From contig CAYSSX010000004.1 in assembly GCA_964434115.1 (NCBI GenBank), positions 175,688 to 239,687 of the forward strand: DNA of 64,000 nt, given 5' to 3'. Numbering within the stretch: position 1 is the stretch's first letter; every line of letters begins with the position of its first letter. The position numbers were made by a program, and so were the translations under genes. The notes below the pieces were generated by a model that ran no database searches, was not told the origin of the DNA, and worked only from the letters and a program-made list of their open reading frames with translations. Source of the DNA: an uncultured bacterium. GTDB lineage: Bacteria > Omnitrophota > Omnitrophia > Omnitrophales > Aquincolibacteriaceae. Below, piece by piece: positions 6,776 through 49,036 of this stretch.

Positions 6776-6782
6776 GCGGCTC

Positions 6783-17995: not shown

Positions 17996-18002
17996 CTCGC
18001 TT

Positions 18003-18578: not shown

Positions 18579-18644
18579 AAAAACCCCTTTTATGGTTGAA
18601 TGCTGGCAGCGGGGACCTTCCGTGTCAGGCTGCGCCGCCTTGTT

Positions 18645-19370: not shown

Positions 19371-19384
19371 TATTTCCTCCTTGA

Positions 19385-20182: not shown

Positions 20183-20191
20183 AAAAACTCC

Positions 20192-20746: not shown

Positions 20747-21258
20747 AGGGTCGTTGTGACCTCAGATTTTTCACCCGGAACCAGGATCTTCACAGACTCT
20801 GTTTCCGCTTTCCCGTCATCAACCGTACTTTCTTTTGCGGGAGCGGTTTCTTTTTTCTTTTCGCGGTCTTTCTTTTCTTCATGCGCCTTGCCGCGGAGTT
20901 TTTTGACTTCCTCCACCTTTTCGCGCTTTTGCTGCTTGAGTTCTTCCATACGGGCCTTGCGGACCGCTTTGTCTTTCTCTTCCCAGTCGCGCCGGCCTTT
21001 TTCAGTGGTCAGATCCGCCTTCGCCAGCTCCTTTTGCACATGCCCGCGGAGATCCTCCTGGGTTTCCCTCTTTTTCTTCACCGCGTCCGTGGGCTCAATC
21101 CGGGGCTTTCCCGCATACTCCGAATCAGGAGTGTCCTTTTCTTCTGTTTTGGCCCAAAAGCCCCAGGGACGGTCTTCCGCTGCGGCGGGATTGATCGGGG
21201 AAAATAAAAAACAGAGGCTCAAGAAGAAAAGTCCGGACCCGCGGCGGAGGGCATTCAT
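20743..21258 (-). CDS. Secreted Lys/Glu-rich coiled-coil protein
   Basis: Signal peptide MNALRRGSGLFFLSLCFLFSPINPAAA from ATG 21258 with RBS GGAAAGGG; 4 nt overlap with the downstream NUDIX start. Confidence 0.5.
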   Translation of the reverse strand: MNALRRGSGLFFLSLCFLFSPINPAAAEDRPWGFWAKTEEKDTPDSEYAGKPRIEPTDAVKKKRETQEDLRGHVQKELAKADLTTEKGRRDWEEKDKAVRKARMEELKQQKREKVEEVKKLRGKAHEEKKDREKKKETAPAKESTVDDGKAETESVKILVPGEKSEVTTTL

Positions 21259-29317: not shown

Positions 29318-30300
29318 GACTTTTTCCCCAGTGTATCCACCGCGAGTTTGGCGGCGCCTTTCACAATCGCATAATCGCCAAGCTTGGCCGCAGCCACCTT
29401 CACATGGGCCGCAAGCGGCTTCATGGCATAGTCGTGCATGGTCTGCCGGGCCACGGGAAGAAGAATGTCCCCCAGCGCCTCCACAAGACCGCCGCCCAGC
29501 ACAATGAGTTCCGGACTGAGAAGATTCACCACGTTGGCCATCCGGATTCCAAGGAGCACGGCCTTGTCCGTGATCAATTCCCGCACGGCTTCATCGCCGC
29601 CCTCGATAGAACGGGCGAGCGCCTTGCTCTTTACTTTGCGGATATCGTAGTCCGTAAGTTCCAAAAGTTTCGGGGCCTTCTGCTTCATCACAAGCAGCAT
29701 GGCTTCCGAGGCAATGCGGAGCCGCCCCATGAAATCTTCCACGGTTCCAGCCTTTTGGCCGCCGGGTAAAAAGGTGGGCAGTGTCAAAAACGTATGCCCG
29801 ATTTCCCCGGCCGCGCCGGTGGCCCCGCGGTAAAGCTTGCCGTCAAGAATCAAGGCGCCGCCCACGCCGGTTCCCAGAAAAATACCCGCAACGTGCTTGA
29901 ACCCTCGCGCGGCCCCGAATTGCTGCTCACCGTAAAGCCCTGCATTAACATCGTTTTCCACGGTTACGGGCACTTTAAAATGACGCGCCAGTTTTTCACG
30001 GAGCGGATAATTTTTAAGAAAGGAAATATTCGGGGAAATACGCACCACGCCTTCCGGAAGTTCAATGATTCCGGGGCAGCCGACCCCGATCGCGCGGATA
30101 TCCTTCACGGAAACCTTGCCGGAAAGAAGCGTTTCAATGCTGTCCACAAAGTTTTTGAAAAAATAGCGCTCTCCGCGGTTCGGTTCCACCGCGGTCTTGT
30201 AGAGCGCCTTTACTTGGAATTTTTCATCGAGGAGACCGGCCAGCATTTTCGTGCCGCCAAGATCCACTCCAAGAACATACTTTTTACGGGCATTTGCCAT
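29314..30300 (-). CDS. ROK-family sugar kinase (candidate polyphosphate/ATP glucokinase)
   Basis: ...VLGVDLGGTKMLAGLL... with no N-terminal HTH, embedded in the ppk/ppx operon. Confidence 0.8.
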   Translation of the reverse strand: MANARKKYVLGVDLGGTKMLAGLLDEKFQVKALYKTAVEPNRGERYFFKNFVDSIETLLSGKVSVKDIRAIGVGCPGIIELPEGVVRISPNISFLKNYPLREKLARHFKVPVTVENDVNAGLYGEQQFGAARGFKHVAGIFLGTGVGGALILDGKLYRGATGAAGEIGHTFLTLPTFLPGGQKAGTVEDFMGRLRIASEAMLLVMKQKAPKLLELTDYDIRKVKSKALARSIEGGDEAVRELITDKAVLLGIRMANVVNLLSPELIVLGGGLVEALGDILLPVARQTMHDYAMKPLAAHVKVAAAKLGDYAIVKGAAKLAVDTLGKKS

Positions 30301-30410
30301 GAGTCCCTTTCTTCCGCTCTCAAACGCTTCAAGCGGAGAAGATTAAAAACCCTTCATTCCGTTGACGGTTCCGTTGTGTAATGTTTAGGTAAAGCTTCTT
30401 CATTTTCCGC

Positions 30411-30908
30411 CTAAGCAGCGGCTTCAATTAATTTCGGCGATGTCAGCCAATGCAGGACCGCAGGGCCGCTTTGTCCCGCCCCCGGCACCGCCATTTTGCA
30501 AAGTCCCGCTTTTTTGAATTCAATGCCCGCAGAAATGTTTCCCGTCAGGAGATACGCGGCCAGTTTTCCCAGCAAAGGTTCATGCCCCGCGATCAAGATC
30601 CGTTTATGTTTTTTTCCGGAACGCGCCAAAGCTTGAGCTGCGGAACGGGGAGAACCTTCCGGCACCAGCCCTTTTGAAATCCGGACTGGAACATGCGGGT
30701 AAAATTCCTGGATGACTTCAAGGGTTTGACGGGCGCGGAGCAAGGGGCTGGTAAGAAACAGATCCAGCTCAATCCCCTGGGCTTTCATCCACCGGCCCAT
30801 GATCCGGACTTTCTTCGCGCCCTTTCGCGTCAAAGCCCGGTCTTCGTCGGCTTGTCCGTCCCGGCCTCTTTCCTCGGCCAGCCCATGTCTTAGCAAGTAA
30901 ACTTCCAT
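30411..30908 (-). CDS. sixA: Histidine phosphatase family protein (SixA-like phosphohistidine phosphatase)
   Basis: MEVYLLRHGLAEE...RALTRKG...IAGHEP... Confidence 0.75.
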   Translation of the reverse strand: MEVYLLRHGLAEERGRDGQADEDRALTRKGAKKVRIMGRWMKAQGIELDLFLTSPLLRARQTLEVIQEFYPHVPVRISKGLVPEGSPRSAAQALARSGKKHKRILIAGHEPLLGKLAAYLLTGNISAGIEFKKAGLCKMAVPGAGQSGPAVLHWLTSPKLIEAAA

Positions 30909-31191: not shown

Positions 31192-31431
31192 ATGAACCCT
31201 TCAAAAAGCAAAGGCTGTTTGGGACAGGCCATGGTGGAGTACGCGATGATTCTCGGCATGATCGCGATGGTAGGAATGGTTGCGCTCGAAGCCCTTGGCA
31301 CCAACATGCAAAACGCATTGCGCCAATACAGCATTGGCGGTGCTGCCCGCGACGGAGGCCCCGGCGACCACATCCCGCTTCAGGGTGACACCCTGGGAAC
31401 CCGTGCGAACCCGGAAAGCCTTAGCGTATAA
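31192..31431 (+). CDS. flp: Flp/Fap-family type IVb pilin precursor
   Basis: ...KGCLGQAMVEYAMILGMIAMVGMVALEALGT... class III signal + Flp motif; RBS GGAGAAGG. Confidence 0.65.
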   Translation: MNPSKSKGCLGQAMVEYAMILGMIAMVGMVALEALGTNMQNALRQYSIGGAARDGGPGDHIPLQGDTLGTRANPESLSV

Positions 31432-31540: not shown

Positions 31541-34033
31541 TTATTCCGCAGCAGATTTATCGAAGAGGTGCTTGAGGCCATGGGTCGAGAGACCAAAACG
31601 GGTCATGAGCTGGGCCATGTGCTTGGAGTACTCGGAAAAATTTACAGGGATGGACGCGGGGTCCTGCGTCCACTTCCGGATCAGGGAAAACAAATCATTC
31701 TGCGGCTGTAAGAGTTCCAGTTCGACCCCGAGTTTTTTGGAGAGTTTGTGCAGGTAGATGCATTCCGCGATCATTTTGTCTTCCTGATTCTGCACAAATC
31801 TTGCGACACGGCTGCTCAGTTCCTGACTGAGAAACTGCGCAACCGGCCCTTTCTGAATCTCCACGTTAAAGGCCTTTGCCGTGTCCATCATCCGGTAAGC
31901 GACCGTCGCTTTCTTCTGAAACCCTGAAGCGGCAAGTTTGTGAAGCTCTTCCAGGAGACGGCGGCTTAACACGTGCTGGGCCGCGTAGCGAAACTCCGCG
32001 GGAATGGGAAGATGGATGGACCCGTAAATTTCATTGATGCGGCGGCTCTCTTCGTACACGCGTTCATAAAACTTGCTGATGCTGTCGATCTGGCGCCTTG
32101 TCAGACGGGAAATAATATTCATGCGGTCTTCAAGCACCAGTTCCTTAAGGGTAAAATAACGCTCTCCAAACCGCATATCGATTTTCTTAAAAACTTCCAC
32201 AATGTGGGAATTGTACAAATCTTCAAAGGTGGCCTGTTCCAGCGCTTCAAAATCATCTCCGCTTTCAAAAGGTTTCACGGAGCACCGGAAATCGTAAAGC
32301 CCGGTCTGGAGCGCGAGAAAAATAATATCTTTTTCCTCCAGCGTGATTTTGGAAATAATTTTGACGCGGCCGAAATTCAGGGTCAGCCCGCCGAAACTCT
32401 CCTTGCGCTGATACATCACCTGAAGATTGAAACAGTAAATATCGAGGCTTTCCCTCTGCGGGTAATAGTCCTCAAAAATCGACCCCATGGCGTAGTAGCT
32501 CACAATGTGTTCCAGCGTCGCCACGGAGGATTTCACAAGCTTTTCATAAACACCCCGGCCGTCACGGTAGGTCTCGACATTGCTTTTTGCCTTTTCCAGG
32601 CGCTGAAGGAACTCTTCCTCGTAACTCGCGCCCGTGACTTCGCGCACCAGCTGAATGGCACGCGCGGCGTACTGCAAGATCTGCACGGTTTCAATGCCTG
32701 AAAGTTCGGTAAAAAACCAGCCGCAGCTCGTGTACATGAGCATGGCATGGCGCTGCATCTCCAAAAGTTTCAGGCAAAGGGTCATCTCCGCGCTCGTGAG
32801 GTCATGCTTGCGGTGGCAGTCAAAGAAACTCTGGATACTGGGCTCGCGGCGGTCCAGCACGACTTTGATGTAATCGTCGCGGGCATCCCAGGGATTTTTT
32901 AAATACGCTGAAATGCGGTCTTCATAAACCTTTGCCAGCTCGTCCCGCAGCCAGTCAAGCGAGTCCCGGAGAGGTTTGCGCCAATTCTGATTCCACTCCG
33001 CGGGGCCGCCGCCCCGGCATCCGCAATGGTCTTTCCAGCGGCGCACGCCATGAGCACAGCTCCACGCCGTGCCTTCGTTGTTTTCACCTTCGTGAAGCCG
33101 CGCCTCAAACTCCGGGGGGTATTCTTCCAGGAATTCCCCGTAGTTGACAATCCGGTAACCCCGCGCCGGCGCCTCAACATGAGTCAGATACGCAGCGGCC
33201 CTGTCTCCAAACGCCTTGTGGTGCCCGTAAGTTTCGCCGTCCGTCGCAATGTGAATCAGCTGAGGTTTGTTCCCGTAATCCACAACCGCCCCGTCAATGC
33301 GGGACATAAAAATTTTGGCGTCAAAAAGAAGGTTTTCGAAACCCGCGGCCTTTGAAATAGGGCCGTCATAGAAAAAAATATCAATGAACTTTTCGGGGTT
33401 TGACTTCAAGAAACAGCGGTAGGGACGGCGCGGATCGATCCGGCCCGGAGTCGCATCCAGCCATTCCCCTCCGAAAGGGCGGAAGGCCTGGGCCTGATGC
33501 GGCTCAAGAATAATGAATTTTATTTTCTCTTCCACCAGGACTTCCAGCGTGGCCTCATTGCAGGCCGTTTCAGGAAGCCAGATCGCTTCCGGCTCGCGGC
33601 TGAAACGGTGCCGGAACTCGGCCACTCCCCAGCGAACCTGGGTCACCTTGTCGCGCCGGTTGGCCAGCGGCATAATCATGTGATTATAAACCTGGGCAAT
33701 CGCGTTTCCGTGGCCGTGATGCCGTTTCCGGCTCTCGTGGTCGGCTTCAATGATGCGCAGGTAGGTATCAAAATGTTTTGCTTCAAGCCAGGACATCAAA
33801 GTCGGCCCGAAATTGAAACTCATCTTCTCGAAATTATTGACGATGTCGGCGATCTTGCCGTCCGGCCCGAGGACACGGGCGCGGGAATTGGGAAGGTAGC
33901 ACTCCGAATGAATGCGTTCATTCCAGTCATGGAAAGGCGCGGCGCTCTCCTGGGGCTCAATTTCTTCGATCCAGGGATTTTCGCGGGGAGGCTGGTAAAA
34001 ATGACTATGGATGCAGAGACAGGCTTTAGTCAC
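31541..34033 (-). CDS. GH57-family glycoside hydrolase (alpha-amylase / 4-alpha-glucanotransferase-like) with a large C-terminal domain
   Basis: N-terminus CLCIHSHFYQPPRENPW... (H-x-H-x-Y-Q-P GH57 motif), 830 aa. Confidence 0.75.
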   Translation of the reverse strand: MTKACLCIHSHFYQPPRENPWIEEIEPQESAAPFHDWNERIHSECYLPNSRARVLGPDGKIADIVNNFEKMSFNFGPTLMSWLEAKHFDTYLRIIEADHESRKRHHGHGNAIAQVYNHMIMPLANRRDKVTQVRWGVAEFRHRFSREPEAIWLPETACNEATLEVLVEEKIKFIILEPHQAQAFRPFGGEWLDATPGRIDPRRPYRCFLKSNPEKFIDIFFYDGPISKAAGFENLLFDAKIFMSRIDGAVVDYGNKPQLIHIATDGETYGHHKAFGDRAAAYLTHVEAPARGYRIVNYGEFLEEYPPEFEARLHEGENNEGTAWSCAHGVRRWKDHCGCRGGGPAEWNQNWRKPLRDSLDWLRDELAKVYEDRISAYLKNPWDARDDYIKVVLDRREPSIQSFFDCHRKHDLTSAEMTLCLKLLEMQRHAMLMYTSCGWFFTELSGIETVQILQYAARAIQLVREVTGASYEEEFLQRLEKAKSNVETYRDGRGVYEKLVKSSVATLEHIVSYYAMGSIFEDYYPQRESLDIYCFNLQVMYQRKESFGGLTLNFGRVKIISKITLEEKDIIFLALQTGLYDFRCSVKPFESGDDFEALEQATFEDLYNSHIVEVFKKIDMRFGERYFTLKELVLEDRMNIISRLTRRQIDSISKFYERVYEESRRINEIYGSIHLPIPAEFRYAAQHVLSRRLLEELHKLAASGFQKKATVAYRMMDTAKAFNVEIQKGPVAQFLSQELSSRVARFVQNQEDKMIAECIYLHKLSKKLGVELELLQPQNDLFSLIRKWTQDPASIPVNFSEYSKHMAQLMTRFGLSTHGLKHLFDKSAAE

Positions 34034-34037
34034 CGGC

Positions 34038-34259
34038 TCAATACTTGTCCGTGCTCAAGAGTGAAATTTTGACGGTTTTTCCCGACCACTTCATGCTGAT
34101 CTTGTCCTCACGGGCAAGCCAGCCAAGGGCCTGATGAAAAAGGTCGGCGTTCACCGGAACGGCCTTATGCAATTTGACCGCGGTGGTTTCTCCGCTTTCC
34201 TCAAGGGCCTTGTAGATTTTGCCTGCGGTTTCGCCAATCAAATAATATTCATCCTGCAT
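34038..34259 (-). CDS. Small winged-helix protein (DUF2582-like), paralog of 47260..47481
   Basis: MQDEYYLIGETAGKIYKALE...FHQALGWLAREDKI... ; RBS GAGGTG. About 55% identical to the paralog, which has the same RBS. Confidence 0.6.
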   Translation of the reverse strand: MQDEYYLIGETAGKIYKALEESGETTAVKLHKAVPVNADLFHQALGWLAREDKISMKWSGKTVKISLLSTDKY

Positions 34260-34293
34260 GGAGCACCTCGCTTAAGTCCGGATTTCCGGACAA

Positions 34294-35877
34294 TTAATTC
34301 TCCGAGTAAACGCGGTAATCAATTCCCGGGAAAATGTTGTTTCGGCTTTCAAGACCCGCCAGCCAGCCTTCATCGACCGTGCCGCGGCGAACATCCTCAT
34401 AAAGCTTCGTAAAGTTTAGCAGATGGTCCTTGGTCCGTTTTTCCGCGTAAGGGACCATGGTTCCCGTATGCATAATAAAAGCCCAGTCGCTTGACTGCGC
34501 GAGCAGAAGTTCGCGGGCCGCCTGATTGAGCGCGCGGTTCGTAAGCCCGTCCGAGTTCCGGTAGGAGGAAGCCAGCTCCCCCATTCTCAGCGCGGCCTTA
34601 TGCAGGTGCCGGTAAATCCAGTGATTCGACCCCGAGAGCCATGTCTCCGCGTACCCTTTCCAGCCCCAGCTTGAAAAAGACGGCGTTGAGACCTGGTTCA
34701 CCGGGTACTCCCGCAGATAATCCGACGGGGTCGCCAGACGGATGGTTTTCTGGTCAAACGCGGTTTTACGGATCAGGAAATTTAAAAAATCAGGGCCTTC
34801 ATACCACCAATGCCCGTAAAGCTCCGCATCGTACGGAGCTACAATGATCGGCTTTCTTCCCAGAAAATCGTAGAGGTATTCCGCCTGTTTTTCGCGGTTG
34901 AAAATAAAATTGGCGGCATGGCTTGCGGCTTTGGCCATGGCGTGTTCACGCACATAAGGCTGTTTGTCATTCGAGGGGCCTGTGATCCGGTGGTACTTGA
35001 TACCGGTCGAAACACGCAGGCCGTCCGGCGAAATGTAGGGCTTGATGTATTCAAAGTCGAGATCAAACCCGATGTCGCGGTAAAATTCGCGGTAATCAAA
35101 ATCTCCCGGATAGCCTTCCGCCGCAGACCAGACCTGCTTGGAAGATTCCGCGTCGCGGCCAAACGCGGCCACACCCGTCGGGCAGTAAACCGGGGCAAAC
35201 ACCCCGTACTTGGGCCGGGGTGAAGCATGAAGAATCCCGTGCGTATCGGTGAGAAAATAGCGGATGCCTGATTCTTTCAAAAAGCGGTCAGCCCCGGGGT
35301 AATAACCGCATTCCGGAAGCCAGATGCCGAGCGGCTTACGCCCGAACGTTTGTTCATACTGGCTGACGGCGGTGACCACCTGTGCGCGGATGGAACCTTC
35401 GGTGCGGTTGATCAGCGGGAAAAAGCCATGCGTGGCGCCGCAGGTAATGATTTCAAGACATCCCAGGTCCTGGTATTTCCGGAACGCCTGCGTGAGGTCT
35501 CTCGCGTAACGCAGAAAGGTTTCACGGGTTTGCGTGAACTGCCAGAAATAATGAAGGGCCGTGCCATGATATTCGGGAAGGAAACGCGTGCGGTCCACTT
35601 CCTTGTTCGCAAGCTCAATAAGTTTATCGAGATGCCGGATGTAACGCTCCTGAAGCAGCGGGTCGCGCAGCATGGAAATCAAAGGCGGCGTCATGGACAT
35701 CGTGATGCGGTAAGGAACCCGGTCGCGTTCCAGGCCTTCAAACATATGGATCAGCGGGACATAAGTTTCCGTGATCGCTTCGTAGAGCCAGTTTTCTTCG
35801 AGGAAATACTCGTGTTCAGGATGGCGGACAAAAGGCAGATGCGCGTGAAGAACAATCGAGAGCAGTCCCTTTTCCAT
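34294..35877 (-). CDS. GH57-family 1,4-alpha-glucan branching enzyme
   Basis: ...LSIVLHAHLPFVRHPEHEYFLEENWLYEAITETY... GH57 branching-enzyme signature, ~527 aa. Confidence 0.85.
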   Translation of the reverse strand: MEKGLLSIVLHAHLPFVRHPEHEYFLEENWLYEAITETYVPLIHMFEGLERDRVPYRITMSMTPPLISMLRDPLLQERYIRHLDKLIELANKEVDRTRFLPEYHGTALHYFWQFTQTRETFLRYARDLTQAFRKYQDLGCLEIITCGATHGFFPLINRTEGSIRAQVVTAVSQYEQTFGRKPLGIWLPECGYYPGADRFLKESGIRYFLTDTHGILHASPRPKYGVFAPVYCPTGVAAFGRDAESSKQVWSAAEGYPGDFDYREFYRDIGFDLDFEYIKPYISPDGLRVSTGIKYHRITGPSNDKQPYVREHAMAKAASHAANFIFNREKQAEYLYDFLGRKPIIVAPYDAELYGHWWYEGPDFLNFLIRKTAFDQKTIRLATPSDYLREYPVNQVSTPSFSSWGWKGYAETWLSGSNHWIYRHLHKAALRMGELASSYRNSDGLTNRALNQAARELLLAQSSDWAFIMHTGTMVPYAEKRTKDHLLNFTKLYEDVRRGTVDEGWLAGLESRNNIFPGIDYRVYSEN

Positions 35878-35879
35878 GC

Positions 35880-37187
35880 TCAGGAACCCTTGGCTGGGCG
35901 TATCACAGGTTCAGGGCGGTAGGTTTCGCGCTGAACAACCGGCGTGATCACGCGTTCCTCAATGCCGTCGGCAGATTCCGCCTTGGCGTCAAAAACAAAT
36001 TTTCCATCGGGTAAGGCAAACCGGAAAGAAAAAGTTCCGTCCGGACGCAGCTGGATGACTTTTCCCTGAAAGGTCACTTTGGCATCCGGCTCGGTACCCC
36101 CGTAGACAATGACTTCACAGTCCAGCCAGAACCAGAACTTGCGGTCCTTGCCGGGAGGTCCTTTCGCGCCCGGACTCGACATGCTGGAAAGAAGGCCTGC
36201 CCCGGACCCGGAAGAAATATTGCCCTGAATCTTATCTTCCATCAATTTCCGGACTTCCATGGAGCTTTTTCCCGGATCAAAGCCGCCTGAGAGTGCGTAA
36301 ACCTTGTCAAAATCAATATCCATCCACTGTTCATCCAGCACATCCGACATCTGGGAACGCGGCATCAGGACCTGATTGGATTTCGCAAGGGCCAAAAACC
36401 GTCCATCTTTGTGCAGAACGCCGATCTCGACAAAATAACGCCGGTTCGGCTGTGTGTTGACATACCAGTGGTTCGTAATCCCGCCCAGATAAAGGTCATG
36501 AAAAACGCCTTCTTTTTCAGTCGTATCATAAACGCGGAGGATAACGCACACGTCTTCCCAGGATCCGCCCAGGCGCGCACGCGCGTTTTCCACATAATCC
36601 CGCTGCAATTCCCAATAGGCATAAGCCCAGCAAGGGTCGCGGACCATAAAATAAATCATGTTGTCGCCGTAATTCTGGGGAAGCTCCGCGGGCCGGGCTT
36701 CATGCACCACCGGCGCGGGCGGAGATTTTGGCTTCTTGCGCAAAGACACCCGGACAGCGCCGAGAAGATCCAAAGCCTTCTGCCTTTTTAATCCGGCGGA
36801 TATCGCCGATGACTTGACGCGCATTTTTTGCGGTGCCGCAGGCTTAACAGCGGTCTTTTGCAGAGACTTTTTGGCCGCGGGCATAGATTTTTTCTTCGCG
36901 GTTTCCGGTTTCGTTTTCAGCTTGGGAGCGGACACCGCTTTTTTCACTTTCGGAGAAACCGCCGGCTTCAAAACCGTTTTACGGACTGAAGACGTTTTAA
37001 AACTGAGTTTCACCGGAGCTGCGGAACGGACTTTTGCTGGAGAGGCCTTTTTAAGAGGAGGCTTTTTGCGGACTTGCGGCTTGACTGCTTTTTTGCTCTT
37101 GGTAACAACCGCTCTTTTCACCTGCTTTTTAGCAGGCTTGCGAGTGACATTTTTGGCTTTCTTTTTTGTCTTTCCGGCACGCACCAT
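35880..37187 (-). CDS. DUF4912 domain protein with a ~170 aa Lys/Ala/Pro-rich (histone H1-like) N-terminal tail
   Basis: ...YFMVRDPCWAYAYWEL... DUF4912 core; RBS AGGAAA. Confidence 0.7.
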   Translation of the reverse strand: MVRAGKTKKKAKNVTRKPAKKQVKRAVVTKSKKAVKPQVRKKPPLKKASPAKVRSAAPVKLSFKTSSVRKTVLKPAVSPKVKKAVSAPKLKTKPETAKKKSMPAAKKSLQKTAVKPAAPQKMRVKSSAISAGLKRQKALDLLGAVRVSLRKKPKSPPAPVVHEARPAELPQNYGDNMIYFMVRDPCWAYAYWELQRDYVENARARLGGSWEDVCVILRVYDTTEKEGVFHDLYLGGITNHWYVNTQPNRRYFVEIGVLHKDGRFLALAKSNQVLMPRSQMSDVLDEQWMDIDFDKVYALSGGFDPGKSSMEVRKLMEDKIQGNISSGSGAGLLSSMSSPGAKGPPGKDRKFWFWLDCEVIVYGGTEPDAKVTFQGKVIQLRPDGTFSFRFALPDGKFVFDAKAESADGIEERVITPVVQRETYRPEPVIRPAKGS

Positions 37188-37334
37188 ACAACAATTTCCT
37201 AAGGGGGGTCATGAAAAGTTGGTCAGCCTTTCTTTGACTGTGCCTACTATACTGCAACGAACGTGCCTTTTAAATAAAAACTTTCCAAAACTCTTGCCGA
37301 CGGTCCCTCCCCTTCGAAAGGGCTCCCCAAGACC

Positions 37335-39821
37335 TTAACGGGCCTTTGGCTTGGAAAAAGGGATTTTCCAGATCTCCCGGGCGTATTCGGTAATCGTCCG
37401 GTCACTTGAAAATTTGCCGGAACGGGCCACGTTCAGAATGGCCTTTTTCGTCCATTCCTCGGGGTTGAGGTAAGCGGCGGAGATTTTCTGCTGAATGGCG
37501 CAATAGGCATCAAAATCCGCGCAAACCAGAAAAGGGTCGGAGTGCATGAGGTTATCGATAAGCGGCATGAACATCCCCGGATCCACGGGAGAAAAAAAGC
37601 CGCTTTTGAGCATTTTGAAGATCTCTGCCAATACCGGAGAGCGGGCAATAAAATCCTGCGGGACATACCCTTTTTCCTGAAGGGCCCGGACTTCATCCGC
37701 CTTAAGGCCAAAAGTGAAAATATTCTCCGCGCCTACGGCCTTGGCCATTTCGATGTTCGCACCATCCAGCGTTCCCACGGTCAAAGCGCCATTGACCATA
37801 AACTTCATGCATCCGGTTCCGGAAGCTTCCGTCCCCGCCGTGGAAATTTGCTCTGAAAGATCACTGGCCGGAAAAACGTTCTCCGCCAGGGAAACCCTGT
37901 AATTCTCCAGGAAAATAATTTTCATCTTATCGCCGATGGCTTTGTCGTGATTCACCACATCCGCAATATTGGAGATAAATTTGATTATGAGTTTCGCCAT
38001 GGCGTAACCCGGCGCCGACTTGCCCGCGAATAAAAAAGTCCTCGGCACGTGCGGCTTCTTGCTGTTTTCCTTGATCTTCAGATACTCGGAAATAATGTAG
38101 AACGCAAAAAGGGTCTGCCGCTTGTATTCGTGGATGCGTTTGATCTGAACGTCAAAAATAGATTCCGGGTTCACACGGACCCCGTTCAAATCAAGAATCG
38201 TCTTCGCGAAATCCGCCTTGTTGGCCTGTTTGATCTTTGCCCATTTTTCGCGGAACGCCGCGTCATCTTTATGCGGGGTAAGCTTTTCAAGCTCGTAAAG
38301 ATCCGTGACCCAGCTGCCGCCGATGGTTTCATCGATCAGGGAGGAAAGTCTCGTATTGGCGTTTTTCAGCCACCGCCGCTGCGTGATGCCGTTGGTTTTG
38401 TTGTTGAATTTCTCCGGATAAAATTCGTGGAAATCCCGGAAAAGGTCGGTTTTAAGAAGCGTGGAATGCAGTTCCGAAACGCCGTTGACGGAATGACTGC
38501 CAACGATCGCGAGGTAAGCCATCCGCACGCGCTTCTGATTCCCTTCTTCAATAATCGACATCCGCTTCAAGCGCGCCGTGTCGCCGGGATAATGGTTCGC
38601 GACCTCGCGCAAAAAACGGGCGTTGATTTCATAAATCAACTGCATGTGGCGGGGCAGGAGCTTTTCAAAAAGCGGCGCGGCCCAGCACTCCAAAGCTTCG
38701 GGCATCACCGTGTGGTTGGTATAGGCAAAGGTGCGCACGGTCGTGTCCCAGGCCGTTTCCCAGTCCAGACGCTCTTCATCCAGAAGAACGCGCATGAATT
38801 CCACCACCGCGAGCGCGGGATGCGTATCGTTAAGCTGAATGGCCGCCTTTTCGGGAATCTCGCGAAGGTCCGTGTTCTCCGCCTTGAAGCGGCGGATAAT
38901 ATCCGTGACCGCCGCGGCCGTAAAAAAGTACTCCTGTTTCAGACGGAGTTCACGCCCCATCGAATTGGCATCATTCGGATAAAGAACCTTGGAGATGTTT
39001 TCTGAAAACATCTTGTTGTAGACGGCCTTTTCATAGTCCCCGTGGTTGAAATACTCGAAATCAAATTCTTCGGAACCCCGGGCGGACCAAAGACGGAGCG
39101 TGTTAACCACATCGTTCTGGTATCCGGGCACCGGCGTGTCATAAGGCATGGCGACGACGTCCTGGGTGTTCCGCCACTCCACGCAAAGTTTTCCGTTCTT
39201 GTCGTGGTACATGTACGTGTCGCCGTAGAAACGGACGGTCACGGCATATTCCGGTCTCGGAAACTCCCAAGGGTTGCCGTGCTTGAGCCATTCATCGGGA
39301 AATTCCACCTGATGGCCTTCGACAATTTTCTGATTAAAAATGCCGTAGTCATACCGGATCCCGTAACCGTGCCCGGGAATCCCCAGCGTGGCCATGGAAT
39401 CGAGAAAACACGCGGCCAAACGGCCAAGCCCGCCGTTACCAAGACCCGCGTCCGGTTCTTCGTCGCGGATAAATTCAAAATCCAGATTCATTTCCTTCAG
39501 CGCTTCCTTGGCCGGCTGAAGCAGGTTGAGATTAAGCATGTTGTTGCTCAGAAGACGTCCGATCAAAAACTCCATCGAAAGATAATAAACTCGCTTCGCA
39601 TTTTTCTTGTGATATTCCTGCTGGGTTTTGATCCAGCGTTCCACGATGCGGTCGCGGACAGCAATGGAAAGCGCCATAAAATCATCATGCGTCGTGGTGG
39701 TGAATCGGTCTTTGGCGAGCTGGTAAAAAAGGCTGGAGCTGAAGGAGGTCCGCATGCCCTCTTTGGTCATGTCTTTGTAAACGACTTCCCAGGGTTCCTG
39801 AGCGGGCTTATGCTTTGACAT
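37335..39821 (-). CDS. glgP: Glycogen/maltodextrin phosphorylase (GT35)
   Basis: 828 aa; ...EFPDEWLKHGNPWEF..., ...TNHTVMPEALE..., PLP-site region ...EASGTGCMKFMVNGALTVGTLDGANIE... Confidence 0.95.
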   Translation of the reverse strand: MSKHKPAQEPWEVVYKDMTKEGMRTSFSSSLFYQLAKDRFTTTTHDDFMALSIAVRDRIVERWIKTQQEYHKKNAKRVYYLSMEFLIGRLLSNNMLNLNLLQPAKEALKEMNLDFEFIRDEEPDAGLGNGGLGRLAACFLDSMATLGIPGHGYGIRYDYGIFNQKIVEGHQVEFPDEWLKHGNPWEFPRPEYAVTVRFYGDTYMYHDKNGKLCVEWRNTQDVVAMPYDTPVPGYQNDVVNTLRLWSARGSEEFDFEYFNHGDYEKAVYNKMFSENISKVLYPNDANSMGRELRLKQEYFFTAAAVTDIIRRFKAENTDLREIPEKAAIQLNDTHPALAVVEFMRVLLDEERLDWETAWDTTVRTFAYTNHTVMPEALECWAAPLFEKLLPRHMQLIYEINARFLREVANHYPGDTARLKRMSIIEEGNQKRVRMAYLAIVGSHSVNGVSELHSTLLKTDLFRDFHEFYPEKFNNKTNGITQRRWLKNANTRLSSLIDETIGGSWVTDLYELEKLTPHKDDAAFREKWAKIKQANKADFAKTILDLNGVRVNPESIFDVQIKRIHEYKRQTLFAFYIISEYLKIKENSKKPHVPRTFLFAGKSAPGYAMAKLIIKFISNIADVVNHDKAIGDKMKIIFLENYRVSLAENVFPASDLSEQISTAGTEASGTGCMKFMVNGALTVGTLDGANIEMAKAVGAENIFTFGLKADEVRALQEKGYVPQDFIARSPVLAEIFKMLKSGFFSPVDPGMFMPLIDNLMHSDPFLVCADFDAYCAIQQKISAAYLNPEEWTKKAILNVARSGKFSSDRTITEYAREIWKIPFSKPKAR

Positions 39822-39912
39822 TGTTTACCTTTCTTCCTCGAAGGAAATTCACGGGGGAAGATTAACAGATTTAAAAGGAACCATTCAAGAATGAATTCTT
39901 AGCACCTGGAGT

Positions 39913-41889
39913 CTAACCCTCGTGCAAAAAGAAAACCGCCGAAAGCGGCGGAAGATCCAGATGCAAAGAATGCGGCTGATGATGCCACGGCACGGATTCC
40001 CCGGGGCGTCCGCCCTGGTTGCCGCTGCCGCTGCCTCCGTAATCATCCGCGTCGCTGTTGAAAATCTCCCGGTACCATCCGTCCCACGGAACCCCCACAC
40101 GGTACCCCAGCCGGGGAACGGGCGTCATGTTAAAAACACACACCACCGGTTTGCTGCGCCCTTTCGCCCAGCGCACAAAACTCACCACGCTGGAATCCCG
40201 GTCGGAAAAATCAATCCACTGAAATCCCTCCGGCGAAAAATCCAGCTCATGAAATGCGGCGAGATCGCGGTGGCAGCGGTTTAAATCGCGGACAAGACGG
40301 CCCCAGGCCTTAAAAATAGGCACGGGCGCAAGATGCCAATCCATGGAATGGCGGCAATTCCACTCCGCCGGCTGGCCGACATCCGCGGTCATAAATAAAA
40401 GCTTTTTTCCCGGGTGCGCGTACATATAAGAAAGGAAGAGCCTCGCGTTGGCCCAGCGCTGCCAGTCATCGCCCGGCATTTTTTCAAGAAGCGATTTTTT
40501 TCCATAAACCACTTCGTCATGCGAAACCGGAAGAATAAAGTTCTCGGTGAACGCGTAGAGCATGGAAAAGGTCAGCATGTCCTGATGAAACCGGCGGTGC
40601 ACGCATTCTTTGGAAAAATAATCCAGCGTGTCATGCATCCAGCCCATGTTCCATTTCATGCTGAAGCCGAGCCCACCCGCGTAGGTCGGCCTTGAAACAC
40701 CGGTCCAGGCGGTGGACTCCTCGGCAATCGTCAAGACTCCGGGATACCGCTCATGCACCACTTCATTGAACCGTTTGAGAAAACTGATCGCCTCAAGGTT
40801 CTCATTGCCGCCGTATTGATTCGGCTGCCACTCTCCCGGCGCGCGGGAATAATCCAGGTAAATCATGGAAGCCACCGCATCCACACGCAGTCCGTCGAGG
40901 TGATACTGATCCAGCCAGAACAGCGCGTTGGACATAAGAAAGTTCCGGACCTCGTTACGTCCGTAATCAAAAACCAGGGTTCCCCACTCCCGGTGCTCGC
41001 CCTTTTTCCAATTGTCATAGGCGTAAATCTGGCGGCCGTCAAAATCCGCGAGGCCGTGAGCGTCTTTTGGAAAATGCGCGGGAACCCAGTCCAGGATCAC
41101 GCCCAGCCCATGACTGTGGCAGGTGTCCACAAAAAACATAAAATCTTCCGGAGATCCAAAACGGCTGGTCGGCGCAAAGTAGCTGATGACCTGATAACCC
41201 CAGGATTCATCCAGCGGATGCTCGCTGATCGGCATCAATTCAAGGTGCGTATAACCCCGCTCAATCGCAAAAGGAATAAGTCTTTCGGCCAGTTCCCGGT
41301 AAGTCAGAAAGTCCTCTCCCTTTTCTCCGGTCCGCATCCAGGAACCCAAATGCACTTCATAAATGGAGACAGGCCCTTCCAAAGGGTTGCGCGCCGCGCG
41401 GGTTTTCATCCAGGCGTCATCGTTCCATTTGAACTTTTGAAGGGCTGCCACCACCGAAGCGGTCCGGGGACGGACTTCGGTCTGAAAGGCATAGGGATCG
41501 GATTTAAAAAAAACATGCCCTTCCGGCGTCTCGACCGCGAACTTATAAAAGGTTCCTTCCACGAGACCGGGAATAAAGCCGTCCCAAAAACCCGACCCGG
41601 GAAGGCGGCGAAGGGGGTTCGCTCCGGACTTCCACAGGTTAAAATCACCCACCACACTGACAGAACGGGCGTTCGGCGCCCAGAGCGAAAAATAAGTTCC
41701 CGGTTTTTTTTCCGTCACGCAGACATGCGCGCCCAGTTTCCGGTAACTATCGAAATGGTTTCCCTCGCCCAGCAAATGGAGGTCAAAACCCGTCAGCCTT
41801 GTTTCTTCCAAAAGAGGAAGGGTTTTGGAGACAGCCGCCGCTTTCGGGCGCCTTACGGCACGTGCTGGGGGACGCGTTTTTCTTTTCAC
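39913..41889 (-). CDS. glgB: 1,4-alpha-glucan branching enzyme (GH13_9)
   Basis: ...GFDLHLLGEGNHFDSYRKLGAH..., ...LGVILDWVPAHFPKD..., ...YDYGRNEVRNFL...; the GGTACC hexamers at 40069..40110 are coding coincidences (GY/WY codons). Confidence 0.9.
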   Translation of the reverse strand: MKRKTRPPARAVRRPKAAAVSKTLPLLEETRLTGFDLHLLGEGNHFDSYRKLGAHVCVTEKKPGTYFSLWAPNARSVSVVGDFNLWKSGANPLRRLPGSGFWDGFIPGLVEGTFYKFAVETPEGHVFFKSDPYAFQTEVRPRTASVVAALQKFKWNDDAWMKTRAARNPLEGPVSIYEVHLGSWMRTGEKGEDFLTYRELAERLIPFAIERGYTHLELMPISEHPLDESWGYQVISYFAPTSRFGSPEDFMFFVDTCHSHGLGVILDWVPAHFPKDAHGLADFDGRQIYAYDNWKKGEHREWGTLVFDYGRNEVRNFLMSNALFWLDQYHLDGLRVDAVASMIYLDYSRAPGEWQPNQYGGNENLEAISFLKRFNEVVHERYPGVLTIAEESTAWTGVSRPTYAGGLGFSMKWNMGWMHDTLDYFSKECVHRRFHQDMLTFSMLYAFTENFILPVSHDEVVYGKKSLLEKMPGDDWQRWANARLFLSYMYAHPGKKLLFMTADVGQPAEWNCRHSMDWHLAPVPIFKAWGRLVRDLNRCHRDLAAFHELDFSPEGFQWIDFSDRDSSVVSFVRWAKGRSKPVVCVFNMTPVPRLGYRVGVPWDGWYREIFNSDADDYGGSGSGNQGGRPGESVPWHHQPHSLHLDLPPLSAVFFLHEG

Positions 41890-41956: not shown

Positions 41957-43054
41957 TTATGTTACAGGCATATGCACTTTCGGAAGAGAAAAAATAAATT
42001 TCGATCCCTTCCCCGCTTTGCTTTCAACACGAATACTGCCGCCATGAGCGGTCATAATGCCTTTACAAATGGCAAGGCCAAGCCCCGTTCCCTTTTCGCC
42101 TCCGGCCGGAGTATGCCCAAATTGCTCGAATTTATTGAAAAGCTTTTCAAGGCCTTCCTCGGGAATGCCCGCGCCCGTATCGGAAACACTGCACTCAATC
42201 GCGCCGCCCCGGTCCTCAATGCCGACACGGATTGTCCCCTGCGGGGTGAACTTCAGCGCGTTGCTCAGAAGATTGATAAAGACCTGCGAAATTTTTTCGC
42301 GGTCCGCTTCCACAAGAATGCCGGGATCCGGATAAACCTGCTGAAGTTCCAGACCGCGTGAAGCGATACTCTGCTTAAAACTCGCGCACACCTCCTGCGC
42401 CAGCGCCGCCATATTGAAGCTGGTTTTTTTAAGCTTCATTTTTCCGATTTCGATCTTGGTGAGGTCAAGCAGGTCATTGATCAAAAGGTTGAGGCGCTCC
42501 ATGTTTTTAAGCACCATGTCCAGAAAGAAGCGCTGATCTTCGGAAACCGTTCCAAGGATCCCCTCCAGGATCTGACGCAGCCCTTCGATCGAGACTGTAA
42601 GCGGCGAGCGCAGCTCATGCACCACCATGCCCATAAATTCCTCGCGGAGTTCCTGGATTTTTCTGCGTTCAAGGGCATAGCGCAGGACCCTTTCAAAAAG
42701 CTCCGGCGACATCTGGTCCTTCATCATGTAATCCTGCGCTCCTCCGGCCACCGCATCCGCGGCAATGTTTTCATCGGTAATGCCGGAACAAACAACGATG
42801 GGAACGCCTGCCGCCGACGGCTGAAGCCGGCGCAGGGTGTCCAGGCCCCGGCTGTCGGGAAGCTGAAGGTCCAGCAAAATCAGATCGAAGTGTTTCTGCG
42901 TGAGGAGTTCCAGCGATTTTTCCAGCGACGGGGCCCGCACAACGCGGTAATGGTTCACTGATTTACCAAGCCTTGACAGGAGTTTACCCATAATCAACGC
43001 ATCATCATCGTCATCTTCCACAAGCAGAACTTCAAAATCATGCTGATCCATCAT
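41957..43054 (-). CDS. Hybrid sensor histidine kinase (N-terminal receiver + HisKA + HATPase_c)
   Basis: ATG 43054 overlaps the stop of the upstream RR; ...VLLVEDDDDDALIMGKLLS...MVVHELRSPLT..., G-boxes. Confidence 0.85.
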   Translation of the reverse strand: MMDQHDFEVLLVEDDDDDALIMGKLLSRLGKSVNHYRVVRAPSLEKSLELLTQKHFDLILLDLQLPDSRGLDTLRRLQPSAAGVPIVVCSGITDENIAADAVAGGAQDYMMKDQMSPELFERVLRYALERRKIQELREEFMGMVVHELRSPLTVSIEGLRQILEGILGTVSEDQRFFLDMVLKNMERLNLLINDLLDLTKIEIGKMKLKKTSFNMAALAQEVCASFKQSIASRGLELQQVYPDPGILVEADREKISQVFINLLSNALKFTPQGTIRVGIEDRGGAIECSVSDTGAGIPEEGLEKLFNKFEQFGHTPAGGEKGTGLGLAICKGIMTAHGGSIRVESKAGKGSKFIFSLPKVHMPVT

Positions 43055-43509
43055 GGTCTCTCTTTGGGAAGTGAAACAATTCCAAACCAATAGGCATAAA
43101 TAATTTTGACGATTTCGACAAGCTCTTCAAACGTGACGGGTTTACGGATAAAGGAATTGCTGCCCAGCCCGTAAGTGTTGCCGATATCGTCTTCGGACTC
43201 GGAAGTCGTAAAAACCAGAACCGGGATTTTTTGAAACCTGGCATCGCGCTTGATTTCACGCAGCGCCTCACGGCCGTCTTTCCGGGGCATGTTTAGATCC
43301 AAGAGCATCAGGTCCGGCGCGGGAAACCTTTCAGCGCCGGAAAAAACACCGCGGTTTTCCAAATAATCCAGAAGCGCCTCGCCATCCACCGCGCGGAAAA
43401 GCCTCACGTCAAGGCGGGCCTTTTTGAAGGCCTTCTCGACCAGCATAAAATCATCGTCATCATCTTCCGCCATCAAAACAACAGGCAAAGCATGAGGTTC
43501 ATTCGGCAT
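43051..43509 (-). CDS. Single-domain response regulator
   Basis: ...VVLMAEDDDDDFMLVEKAFK...LLDLNMPRKDG...; RBS AAGGAG. Confidence 0.85.
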   Translation of the reverse strand: MPNEPHALPVVLMAEDDDDDFMLVEKAFKKARLDVRLFRAVDGEALLDYLENRGVFSGAERFPAPDLMLLDLNMPRKDGREALREIKRDARFQKIPVLVFTTSESEDDIGNTYGLGSNSFIRKPVTFEELVEIVKIIYAYWFGIVSLPKERP

Positions 43510-43518
43510 CGGTACTCC

Positions 43519-47076: not shown

Positions 47077-47194
47077 CCTGATTTTCCACTCTCTTTTAAA
47101 ACACTCATGACGCTTTGGGATACAGCTCCGCCGCGCGAGAAAACTCATTTTTTTATCGGCTTTATAAGGTTTGAACTAACGCTGCATTTAGAAG

Positions 47195-47542: not shown

Positions 47543-49030
47543 TCAAAAGGCATAATGCCGCAAAGGCTTAAAAAAATGGACTTCTCCGGGCCCCAGCTCC
47601 ACATACAGCCCATGCGCCTTAAGCTCGCTTTGACTTCTCTGATACACCACCCCTGAAAAAAGGTCTTCCAGATAAAGATTTTCCGATAAATCCGGGAAAA
47701 CCCAGGGAATGCGCGCAGAGCAGCGGCCCTCGGCAAGGTTCAGCACGCCAAGCCGCCAATCTTCCCCCAAGGTCCAGGCTGTGACCATAATATGATGGTA
47801 AGAGGGGTCCGCGTCCCAGGAGGGACGGGGTTGAAGAATTTGCCACAACCCTTTCTTTAACAAAGGCTTAGAACATTCATTCCAGAGTTTTTCATAAAAC
47901 CCTTTAAGAGCCTCATGCACAGGCTCTTCCGGCCCCCGGGCCAGCTGCACAGGGATGTGGCGGGCGGCCCCTTCCGCCTGCCCGTCATGAAAAAAGCGCA
48001 TTCCGGGCTGAAGCGCGCAGGCCAGCGCCGCGGCTTTGGAGCGCTCTCCGAGGAACACCTCCGCGGCCCGCATTTCATCATGATTTTCAATAAACCGGAC
48101 CATGCGCGTCTCCAGGCCCTCCTGAGAAAGCAGATGCCTTCTCGCTCCGTCCGCAGACCCTGCCCGCAATTGATCGTAAAATTTTTTGTCGTACACAAGG
48201 TCAAACCCAAGGTCCAAAAGTTTTTTTTCCAGGTCCCAGTAAACTTCCGCCATAAAAAGAAACTTCGGGTAGCGGGCTTTCACGGTCCGGATGGCTTCTT
48301 TCCAAAACTCTTCGGCAGGCGCCTTCAAACGCACGGTTTCTCCCCAGACGCGTGAAAAGACCTCGTTCAGCCCGAGCATCGCCATATCGCAGCGGACACC
48401 GTCAGCCACCGCGGCAATATGAAGAAGCTCCCCGGTCATTTTCTCCCGCATCTCGGCGGAAAAAAAATTCACCTGGACCGTATCAATCCAGGGTTCAAAA
48501 TAAGGGTCACGGCCGTGGGCCAGCCACGCGCCGCCCTCAGTTTTAAAAAACCAGCCCGGGTGATTCTTGAGATCGGTTTTGGAAGCGCGCACAAAAAGTT
48601 CGGGATGAGAAAGCGTCCAGGGGTGGTCAAAGGCAAGGTGGTTGGGAACAAAGTCCAGAATCACTTTCAGGCCTGCTGCGTTCAGTTTCTTTTTGATTTT
48701 CACCAAAACACTGGGCGGGCCCAAAAAGGGATCGCGCTCATAACCGTAAACCGCGTAGGGAGACCCTGTAATATCAGCCTCGGTCCAGCCGGGTAAAAGC
48801 GCGTCATAAATTTTGATTTGATTCGGGTGGGTCAGCGCGATTTTCCGCGCGCCGGGACTTCTTTTCCACACGCCCATGAGCCAGACATAATCAAACCCCT
48901 TTTGCTTCAGGCTTTCCCATTCGGCATCGGAAACTTCGTCAAGCGTGAGGGCTCGCCCCGCCTCACGGCGTTTCCGGTTCAGCCAGACAAAGGTATTGAG
49001 TTCCATCATCTGCGCGGATTCCAAAAGCAC
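47543..49030 (-). CDS. GH13-family alpha-amylase-like enzyme (cytoplasmic glycosidase / transglucosidase)
   Basis: GH13 regions: ...VILDFVPNHLAFDHPW..., ...GVRCDMA..., ...FIENHDE... . Start uncertain (GTG 49030, TTG ~49020 after AAGGAG, or ATG at MMELNTF). Confidence 0.7.
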   Translation of the reverse strand: MLLESAQMMELNTFVWLNRKRREAGRALTLDEVSDAEWESLKQKGFDYVWLMGVWKRSPGARKIALTHPNQIKIYDALLPGWTEADITGSPYAVYGYERDPFLGPPSVLVKIKKKLNAAGLKVILDFVPNHLAFDHPWTLSHPELFVRASKTDLKNHPGWFFKTEGGAWLAHGRDPYFEPWIDTVQVNFFSAEMREKMTGELLHIAAVADGVRCDMAMLGLNEVFSRVWGETVRLKAPAEEFWKEAIRTVKARYPKFLFMAEVYWDLEKKLLDLGFDLVYDKKFYDQLRAGSADGARRHLLSQEGLETRMVRFIENHDEMRAAEVFLGERSKAAALACALQPGMRFFHDGQAEGAARHIPVQLARGPEEPVHEALKGFYEKLWNECSKPLLKKGLWQILQPRPSWDADPSYHHIMVTAWTLGEDWRLGVLNLAEGRCSARIPWVFPDLSENLYLEDLFSGVVYQRSQSELKAHGLYVELGPGEVHFFKPLRHYAF

Positions 49031-49036
49031 TCCTTT

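Follow-up and report, generated by a model that had tools for sequence, protein, structure and literature searches.

Proteins that resemble glycoside hydrolase family 57 (GH57) branching enzymes are widespread, and their physiological role has been called puzzling in the field. The majority are missing elements on which good activity depends and prove weak or dead in vitro; in addition, many of the genomes that encode them have GlgB, the branching enzyme of family GH13. A 64,000-nucleotide (nt) stretch of an uncultured Omnitrophota genome (contig CAYSSX010000004.1, positions 175,688 to 239,687; here, the window) raises this question within a single gene cluster. Six genes on its minus strand encode, in order, GlgB, the alpha-glucan phosphorylase GlgP, a protein with the domain DUF4912, a GH57 protein of the branching-enzyme kind, a DUF2582 winged-helix protein, and a second GH57 protein with a DUF3536 domain. 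What do the DUF4912 gene and its GH57 neighbor contribute beside a GH13 branching enzyme? The answer that we favor, with a probability of about 60%, is that the locus serves the branching, trimming, and phosphorolysis of a cytoplasmic alpha-glucan (glycogen), with the synthase encoded elsewhere in the genome, and that DUF4912 is a dedicated partner of the GH57 enzyme, which is of the AmyC type, with a tail that anchors it to a polyanion.

The GH57 enzyme of the cluster groups with AmyC

We applied the GH57 branching-enzyme criteria of Xiang et al. 2021 (PMC9291813), which are HxHLP (x = A/S/T) in the first conserved sequence region (CSR-I) and ELF(Y)GHW in CSR-IV. The window protein carries both fingerprints, HAHLP at amino acids (aa) 11 to 15 and ELYGHW within YDAELYGHWW, as well as the sequence WLPECGY, and the columns of the catalytic Glu (CSR-III) and Asp (CSR-IV) are invariant in a multiple alignment. 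It is colinear with Thermotoga maritima AmyC (PDB 2B5D) over residues 3 to 525 (E = 7.5e-171). Like AmyC and the Kosmotoga pacifica enzyme, it is without the beta5-beta6 strands and the flexible loop, which appear as gaps at alignment columns 239 to 255 and 283 to 320, and the three proteins share a 19-aa insertion that is absent from the Thermus, Thermococcus, and Pyrococcus enzymes. Judged from this alignment, the window protein is AmyC-type and branching-enzyme-like, not a "true" loop-containing GH57 branching enzyme. The loop-containing enzymes of Thermus thermophilus, Thermococcus kodakarensis, and Pyrococcus horikoshii have the same GH57 plus BE_C architecture, catalytic residues, and fingerprints; unlike the window enzyme, they possess the beta5-beta6 strands and flexible loop, have high branching activity, and, as described below, have no DUF4912 neighbor.

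Loop-less sequences make up 92% of 2497 GH57 branching-enzyme-like sequences; the class has very low or no activity on amylose and perhaps does not consist of glycogen branching enzymes, and the co-presence of GH13 and GH57 genes was called puzzling in the same study (PMC9291813). AmyC-type enzymes are reported to be weak, prone to hydrolysis, or inactive on amylose (PMC9291813, PMC6616209). The enzymes from K. pacifica and Petrotoga, like AmyC itself, were assayed without any partner (PMC9291813, PMC6629080, PMC6616209).

T. maritima AmyC, described as a "glycogen branching enzyme with high hydrolytic activity," shares its HxHLP and ELY/FGHW fingerprints, and also its catalytic Glu and Asp, with the window enzyme, and AmyC-like genes, as in the window, have DUF4912 upstream. 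The two systems differ in that AmyC was studied alone and the DUF4912 proteins of Thermotogota are short (242 to 261 aa) and without a basic tail, whereas the window protein is tailed and its gene pair sits beside GlgB and GlgP. Petrotoga mobilis resembles the window in that GH13 and GH57 branching-type enzymes occur in one organism; there, the GH13 enzyme is far more active, and adding the GH57 enzyme leads to shorter, denser branches (PMC6629080, PMC10708623). The GH57 gene of Petrotoga olearia has no GH13 glgB within 6 kb, whereas in the window glgB and the pair are about 2.5 kb apart, with only glgP separating them. The DUF4912 gene of Petrotoga, 4 nt upstream of the GH57 gene, was left out of the published assays.

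DUF4912 is a specific and conserved neighbor of AmyC-type GH57 genes

We scanned DUF4912 genes in one genome per species, which gave 80 loci with flanks of up to 10 kb on each side. At 60 of these loci, which together span at least 10 phyla, the next gene downstream, on the same strand, is an AmyC-type GH57 gene whose product is 58 to 78% identical to that of the window. The phyla include Omnitrophota, Bacillota, Planctomycetota, Thermodesulfobacteriota, Nitrospirota, Elusimicrobia, Margulisiibacteriota, Krumholzibacteriota, Bacteroidota, and Poribacteria, among others. The gap between the two genes has a median of 19 nt and measures 30 nt or less in 27 of 49 cases; the genes that otherwise flank the pair are heterogeneous.

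When GH57 is the starting point, DUF4912 proves to be directly upstream at all six AmyC-type loci examined, which come from Thermotoga, Kosmotoga, Petrotoga, and Halobacteroides. In K. pacifica, it overlaps the downstream GH57 gene by 8 nt, and it is likewise upstream in P. olearia and in two Thermotoga contigs with AmyC-like proteins (99% and 75% identical to AmyC). The genes of Halobacteroides halobius run glgA-DUF4912-GH57-glgP, and none of those called at that locus is a GH13 glgB. The hidden Markov model (HMM) that detects DUF4912 at these six loci found it at none of 83 loci of loop-containing GH57 branching enzymes, a set composed of three genome loci (Thermus oshimai, Thermococcus sp. 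P6, and a Chloroflexota metagenome-assembled genome) and 80 metagenome loci, each confirmed to be loop-type and 62 with upstream sequence of more than 1 kb.

DUF4912 is a specific, conserved neighbor of AmyC-type GH57 genes, a relationship that the preliminary description of this DNA had overlooked. The AmyC-type class, and only that class, is accompanied by this conserved, uncharacterized gene, which has been left out of every published assay, including those of AmyC and the Kosmotoga and Petrotoga enzymes. The searchable literature names DUF4912 in two papers but holds none that links it with GH57 and no mention of PF16258, the Pfam family of this domain, and neither the AmyC paper nor a 2026 review of branching enzymes mentions a partner or a neighbor gene.

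What is rare is the presence of GlgB beside this module, as we found it at none of the 80 DUF4912 loci and at none of the six AmyC-type loci. Two branching enzymes in one operon had been called unusual at the outset. The adjacency is indeed so, with GlgB at 0 of 86 related loci, but the GH57 member of the pair is a loop-less, AmyC-type protein and not a full branching enzyme. The DUF2582 gene follows the GH57 gene in the closest Omnitrophota clade only (loci L004, L006, L008, L009, L010, and L013), and we rejected this winged-helix protein as a general member of the module.

Domain anatomy of the DUF4912 protein

The window protein matches PF16258 over the whole model (positions 1 to 118 of 118) with 90.6 bits against a cut-off of 29.4. 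In all, 4684 representative clusters at 50% identity match the family at E ≤ 0.001, and the closest homologues bear Candidatus Omnitrophota source names. A structure model, made by AlphaFold2 with 62 homologues, shows two confidently predicted beta-sandwiches separated by a linker of low confidence (Table 1). This linker holds the motif S..DE.WM...F...YALSGGF..GKSS, the most conserved of the family outside the two beta domains, with invariant or near-invariant columns. Because the conserved motif coincides with a low-confidence region of the model, which is typical of segments that fold on a partner, we regard the linker as a candidate docking segment. A sequence-profile search of the PDB returned no relative of DUF4912.

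The preliminary description had proposed an HMM search for DUF4912 together with the domain context of its relatives. Besides the neighborhood scan described above, this check covered 99 diverse DUF4912 proteins, of which 31 bear an N-terminal Rho_N domain and 59 have a Glucodextran_B match in the C-terminal region. Among 78 N-terminal extensions, 54 have a net charge of at least +10. The DUF4912 proteins of Thermotogota and Halobacteroides, 222 to 261 aa long, consist of the core only and have no such extension; the core is therefore the conserved functional unit.

The N-terminus of about 170 aa rich in Lys, Ala, and Pro that had been noticed in the window protein is there. It measures 168 aa, with 42 Lys (25%), 11 Arg, 25 Ala, 18 Pro, 4 acidic residues, and 1 aromatic residue, and it has an isoelectric point (pI) of 12.0 and a net charge of +49; the core is acidic (pI 5.4). 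We take this tail to be translated, and not an over-extension of the open reading frame (ORF), because its N-terminal motif MxRxxKTKKKxK is kept in the closest relatives (P0002, P0121, and P0122) and an AGGA sequence resembling a Shine-Dalgarno (SD) site precedes the ATG. Tails of 170 to 225 aa with a charge of about +50 to +62 occur only in the sub-clade of the window protein and these three relatives, and in close Omnitrophota relatives the basic tails are shorter, at about 80 aa. Among relatives, it is the composition of the tail, not its sequence, that is conserved.

The comparison with histone H1 made in the preliminary description fits the tail in composition and fails in homology, since at E ≤ 0.01 Pfam yields neither an H1 nor an HC2 match for the window protein; HC2 is matched in only 1 of the 99 relatives. 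The accompanying idea that the tail could bind polyanions or nucleic acid is strengthened by the Rho_N domains and basic extensions counted above, which make it a candidate polyanion binder. In the Thermococcales, GH57 branching enzymes (L095, 5001 to 6965; P0456 and P0494) carry a C-terminal K-rich linker followed by an HHH_5 helix-hairpin-helix (HhH) domain (alignment columns 640 to 782). Going by domain composition, this fusion, with its module of nucleic-acid-binding type, is an independent, parallel case to the Rho_N and K-rich modules on the DUF4912 partners of bacteria.

A proposed role for DUF4912 and its alternatives

Because the adjacency is class-specific, cross-phylum, and translationally coupled, we read DUF4912 as a dedicated partner of the AmyC-type GH57 enzyme, and we infer that it physically binds this enzyme, that it affects catalysis, and that the tail has a ligand. 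In the mechanism that we propose, GlgB would be the main branching enzyme and GlgP would strip the outer chains to yield glucose-1-phosphate, while the GH57-DUF3536 enzyme and a nearby divergent GH13 enzyme would trim or disproportionate chains. DUF4912 and the AmyC-type GH57 would form a conserved two-gene module, probably expressed from its own promoter. The beta-sandwich domains of DUF4912 and its conserved linker may bind the enzyme, the glucan, or both, and in trans the protein could make good a deficit of the AmyC-type class by providing a module for substrate binding or a covering of the active-site cleft. The variable N-terminal module takes the form of the 168-aa tail here and of Rho_N plus a basic linker in other lineages, and through it the complex would be held to a polyanion, for which nucleoid DNA is the most likely candidate, ahead of RNA or polyphosphate. 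The glucan synthase would be encoded elsewhere in the genome; glycogen synthesis has been inferred for Omnitrophota generally in surveys of metagenome-assembled genomes (PMC8542988).

If the basic or Rho_N modules bind DNA or polyphosphate, DUF4912 would be the first candidate for a factor that positions glycogen in bacteria. Better-behaved GH57 enzymes would be of practical interest for starch modification. The value of this locus is that it points to a partner, unstudied so far but open to testing, for an enzyme class that is large and enigmatic. It is possible, if somewhat doubtful, that DUF4912 is the missing subunit of AmyC-type enzymes, attached by way of its conserved linker and beta-sandwiches and turning a weak, hydrolysis-prone enzyme into a physiological branching or remodeling enzyme, while its Rho_N or lysine-rich module would tether the formation of glucan granules to the nucleoid or to polyphosphate. 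It would then be the glycogen counterpart of PhaM, a protein with a lysine-rich, histone-like tail, and the HhH domain fused to GH57 branching enzymes in archaea would be its parallel. PhaM of Ralstonia eutropha, which tethers polyhydroxybutyrate (PHB) granules to the nucleoid, is associated with a storage polymer, binds DNA, and positions granules (PMC3556143). The likeness is one of functional analogy only, with no homology, and the enzyme that PhaM binds is PHB synthase, whereas DUF4912 is tied to a GH57 glucan enzyme.

Several observations weigh against a dedicated partner with a polyanion-binding tail. AmyC and its relatives are partly active without DUF4912 (PMC6616209, PMC9291813), and therefore a partner is not strictly needed for catalysis. 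The tail could be a mere solubility or spacer element, and a general link between DUF4912 and polyphosphate genes had to be rejected (0 of 80 loci). At 20 of the 80 DUF4912 loci, mostly from Gemmataceae and other Planctomycetota, no GH57 gene is adjacent, and no natural DUF4912-GH57 fusion is present in the homologue hit lists. Foldseek gave FN3/Ig-like matches only for the DUF4912 model, so that carbohydrate binding by the protein is something we infer; the C-terminal domain of the window protein has no Glucodextran_B match at E ≤ 0.01, and a relationship to CBM48 was discarded after HHalign against a CBM48 protein gave a probability of 4.7%.

Might this be an ordinary glycogen turnover locus, in which DUF4912 is a passive granule-binding or coat protein, or an in-trans CBM, that neither forms a complex with the GH57 enzyme nor affects it, with the tail as a spacer? 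Both folded domains are generic beta-sandwiches, common among carbohydrate-binding modules, and such a protein would suit the Glucodextran_B matches in 59 of 99 relatives, the small CBM48-only proteins encoded beside or near DUF4912 at L002, L003, L042, L064, and L071, and the 20 loci where GH57 is not adjacent. We nevertheless consider it unlikely, since so exclusive a tie to one GH57 subclass (6 of 6 AmyC-type versus 0 of 83 loop-type loci) would not be shown by a generic protein, DUF4912 lies 0 to 30 nt upstream of GH57 with stop/start overlaps across phyla, and its profile is not similar to that of CBM48. A different possibility is that the pair acts in another oligo- or polysaccharide pathway and stands beside glgB and glgP by chance. 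A role outside glycogen synthesis has been proposed for loop-less GH57 proteins, whose activity on amylose is very low or absent (PMC9291813), as has been done for mycobacterial Rv3031 in methylglucose lipopolysaccharide synthesis; the pair is also found mostly among unrelated housekeeping genes, and a promoter-like site separates it from glgP in the window. Set against this are the order glgA-DUF4912-GH57-glgP in H. halobius, the GlgP, GH57-DUF3536, or divergent GH13 genes beside the pair at L004, L006, L009, L013, and L015, the GlgA, GlgC, and PGM genes near it in some loci, and the alpha-1,6 branches that the AmyC, K. pacifica, and Petrotoga enzymes make in vitro (PMC6616209, PMC9291813, PMC10708623), and we hold a pathway other than glycogen to be unlikely as well.

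The explanation that we find hardest to credit is that DUF4912 is a nucleic-acid-binding regulator, Rho_N-like or histone-like, of GH57 expression or of local chromatin and no partner of the enzyme. It draws on the Rho_N domains in 31 of 99 relatives, the one HC2 match, the strongly basic tails, and a cyanobacterial Rho_N-DUF4912 family that a 2026 study termed "Rho-like" and listed as of unknown function (PMC13613805). Yet the DUF4912 proteins of Thermotogota and Halobacteroides have no nucleic-acid-binding module and keep the same place upstream of GH57, the conserved core is two beta-sandwiches with no known DNA-binding fold, the DUF4912 protein lacks the RNA-binding and ATPase domains of Rho (PMC13613805), and the locus already has a separate winged-helix gene. 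Each of these rival explanations covers some of the data; none accounts at once for the class specificity and for the Thermotogota versions without a tail.

Gene content and probable transcription of the cluster

All six genes lie on the minus strand at the positions first reported for them, with family matches far above curated cut-offs (Table 1). GlgB matches the NCBIfam equivalogs PRK05402 (955 bits; cut-off 741) and TIGR01515 (898 bits; cut-off 464) and the Pfam families CBM_48, Alpha-amylase, and Alpha-amylase_C, the architecture of a GH13 branching enzyme. The first 35 or so codons of its ORF (41785 to 41889), ahead of the GlgB model match, are basic (MKRKTRPPARAVRRPKAAAVSK...) and may be either an over-extension from the GTG at 41889 or a genuine basic N-terminus. 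GlgP matches Pfam Phosphorylase PF00343 with 1101 bits (model positions 1 to 713 of 713) and TIGR02093 with 1206 bits (cut-off 553), and its translation contains the pyridoxal phosphate-lysine motif EASGTGCMKF; it scores under both equivalog cut-offs, that for glycogen phosphorylase and that for maltodextrin phosphorylase. The winged-helix protein matches DUF2582 with 61.7 bits (cut-off 24.2; E = 7.7e-17; model positions 1 to 63 of 65).

Table 1 Features of the alpha-glucan cluster, with positions given in the window
Feature	Position	Strand	Description
glgB	39913..41889	-	GH13 1,4-alpha-glucan branching enzyme: CBM48 + GH13 catalytic domain + C-terminal beta domain
glgP	37335..39821	-	GT35 alpha-glucan phosphorylase
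Promoter-like site TTTAAA-17-TATAGT	37246..37274	-	In the 147-nt gap ahead of DUF4912; consensus match only
DUF4912 gene	35880..37187	-	435 aa; Pfam PF16258
DUF4912 N-terminal K/A/P-rich tail, predicted disordered	36684..37187	-	aa 1-168
DUF4912 Pfam domain, first beta-sandwich	36330..36671	-	aa 173-286; mean predicted local distance difference test (pLDDT) of 10-residue blocks 87-96
DUF4912 inter-domain linker	36138..36329	-	aa ~287-350; mean pLDDT of 10-residue blocks 33-66; GS-rich stretch
DUF4912 C-terminal beta-sandwich	35922..36137	-	aa ~351-422; mean pLDDT of 10-residue blocks 91-97
AmyC-type GH57 "branching enzyme"	34294..35877	-	GH57 + BE_C; 527 aa
DUF2582 winged-helix protein	34038..34259	-	73 aa; PF10771
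GH57-DUF3536 enzyme	31541..34033	-	830 aa; non-branching type
Divergent cytoplasmic GH13 alpha-amylase-family enzyme	47543..49030	-	Motifs DFVPNH, GVRCD, AEVYW, ENHD

The ORFs scanned in the window were 60 non-overlapping ones of at least 90 aa plus two short ones, the winged-helix ORF and a Flp-like ORF described below. None of them matches Glyco_transf_5, Glycos_transf_1, or NTP_transferase, and the GlgA, GlgC, GlgX, and MalQ families were not found among them, in agreement with the initial remark that glgA and glgC are missing from the window. An Rfam search found no RNA family in the window. A classical glycogen operon (glgBXCAP or glgBCDAP) has glgB, glgP, and a cytoplasmic alpha-glucan substrate in common with this locus; in place of glgC, glgA, glgX, and malQ, the window has two GH57 genes, DUF4912, and a winged-helix gene.

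The cluster had been described as one tightly spaced operon. Tight spacing applies to two junctions, DUF4912/GH57 (2 nt) and winged-helix/GH57-DUF3536 (4 nt), and not to glgB/glgP (91 nt), glgP/DUF4912 (147 nt), or GH57/winged-helix (34 nt). The 147-nt gap holds the promoter-like site, with the AGGA sequence, which we read as SD-like, downstream of it and ahead of the DUF4912 ATG. Within the last codons of glgB, at 39936 to 39951 (minus strand), is a GC hairpin resembling a terminator (CCGCCGCTTTCGGCGG, then a T-run), which could partially uncouple glgB from glgP. Given the gap sizes, the promoter-like site and SD sequence before DUF4912, and the hairpin that ends glgB, the cluster probably consists not of a single tight operon but of two or three transcription units, with DUF4912, GH57, the winged-helix gene, and GH57-DUF3536 in one of them.

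Other glucan enzymes and neighboring genes

The GH57-DUF3536 enzyme matches DUF3536 with 358 bits and GH57 with 58 bits, and its CSR-I (HSHFY) and CSR-IV (ETYGHH) are of the non-branching kind. A sequence-profile search of the PDB found no solved relative. PoGH57 of Pontibacter has the same GH57 plus DUF3536 architecture, an identical CSR-IV, and HGHFY as its CSR-I where the window enzyme has HSHFY (PMC11206854). The likeness is one of motifs and architecture, and neither protein carries the branching-enzyme fingerprints. PoGH57, the only characterized DUF3536 enzyme, is a hydrolase with chain trimming like that of a 4-alpha-glucanotransferase, and it shortens branches (PMC11206854). It differs in its setting, a Bacteroidota locus that includes genes of the GlgE pathway.

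A trio on the minus strand at 47543 to 52158 encodes a PEGA-domain protein with an N-terminal transmembrane (TM) segment, a GT2-like membrane glycosyltransferase, and the divergent GH13 enzyme. The last of these has an intact catalytic triad and no TM segment or signal sequence; its nearest solved structures are 4gkl and 3dhu. Its orthologue stands directly after DUF2582 at L004, L008, L009, and L013, and it probably belongs to the same set of alpha-glucan genes. The GT2-like protein has four TM segments and weak matches to PgaC and Glyco_tranf_2_3, and a 64%-identical gene lies directly upstream of DUF4912 at L015 (1 to 906). The preliminary description had offered this gene, 7 kb from the cluster, as an alternative alpha-glucan synthase. 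GT2 enzymes invert the anomeric configuration, and because of this mechanism and because its product is a membrane protein we rejected it as an alternative glycogen synthase, a function that it cannot have; it also adjoins the gene of the PEGA protein.

Other carbohydrate genes occur near DUF4912 at some of the scanned loci. In Omnitrophota-type contigs, small proteins of about 110 to 125 aa that consist of a CBM48/AMPK-type glycogen-binding domain alone are encoded next to DUF4912 or within 3.5 kb of it (L002, 9584 to 9958; L003; L042, ~6289 to 6615; L064, ~6707 to 6949; L071, ~6903 to 7151). Further alpha-glucan families near some DUF4912-GH57 pairs are an AmyA-gluTrfs_C GH57 4-alpha-glucanotransferase, a GalT-like DUF4921/DUF4931 protein, GlgA, GlgC, and PGM, each in two of the scanned flanking ORFs; L036, L044, and L081 are our guess at the loci, as the link of ORF to family was not reported.

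Directly after the glucan genes of the window, at 25614 to 30908 on the minus strand, comes a polyphosphate set of a SixA-like phosphohistidine phosphatase, a ROK sugar kinase, Ppx/GppA, and PPK1. Although it matches the NCBIfam model for polyphosphate glucokinase only weakly, the ROK kinase might be such an enzyme. At L002, a PPK2-SixA-CHAD-ROK set (17945 to 21092) lies 7 kb from DUF4912. A small plus-strand ORF at 31192 to 31431, convergent with the end of the glucan genes, has no Pfam match at E ≤ 1e-4; its GQAMVEYAMILGMIAMV segment resembles the Flp/Fap pilin motif.

Directly upstream of glgB, at 41957 to 47148 on the minus strand, are genes for a 1209-aa CHASE-PAS histidine kinase, a response regulator, and a hybrid receiver-histidine kinase, and a large PAS kinase flanks the cluster at L004 too. 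The position of these signaling genes next to glgB and at the L004 cluster suggests possible sensory control of the glucan genes.

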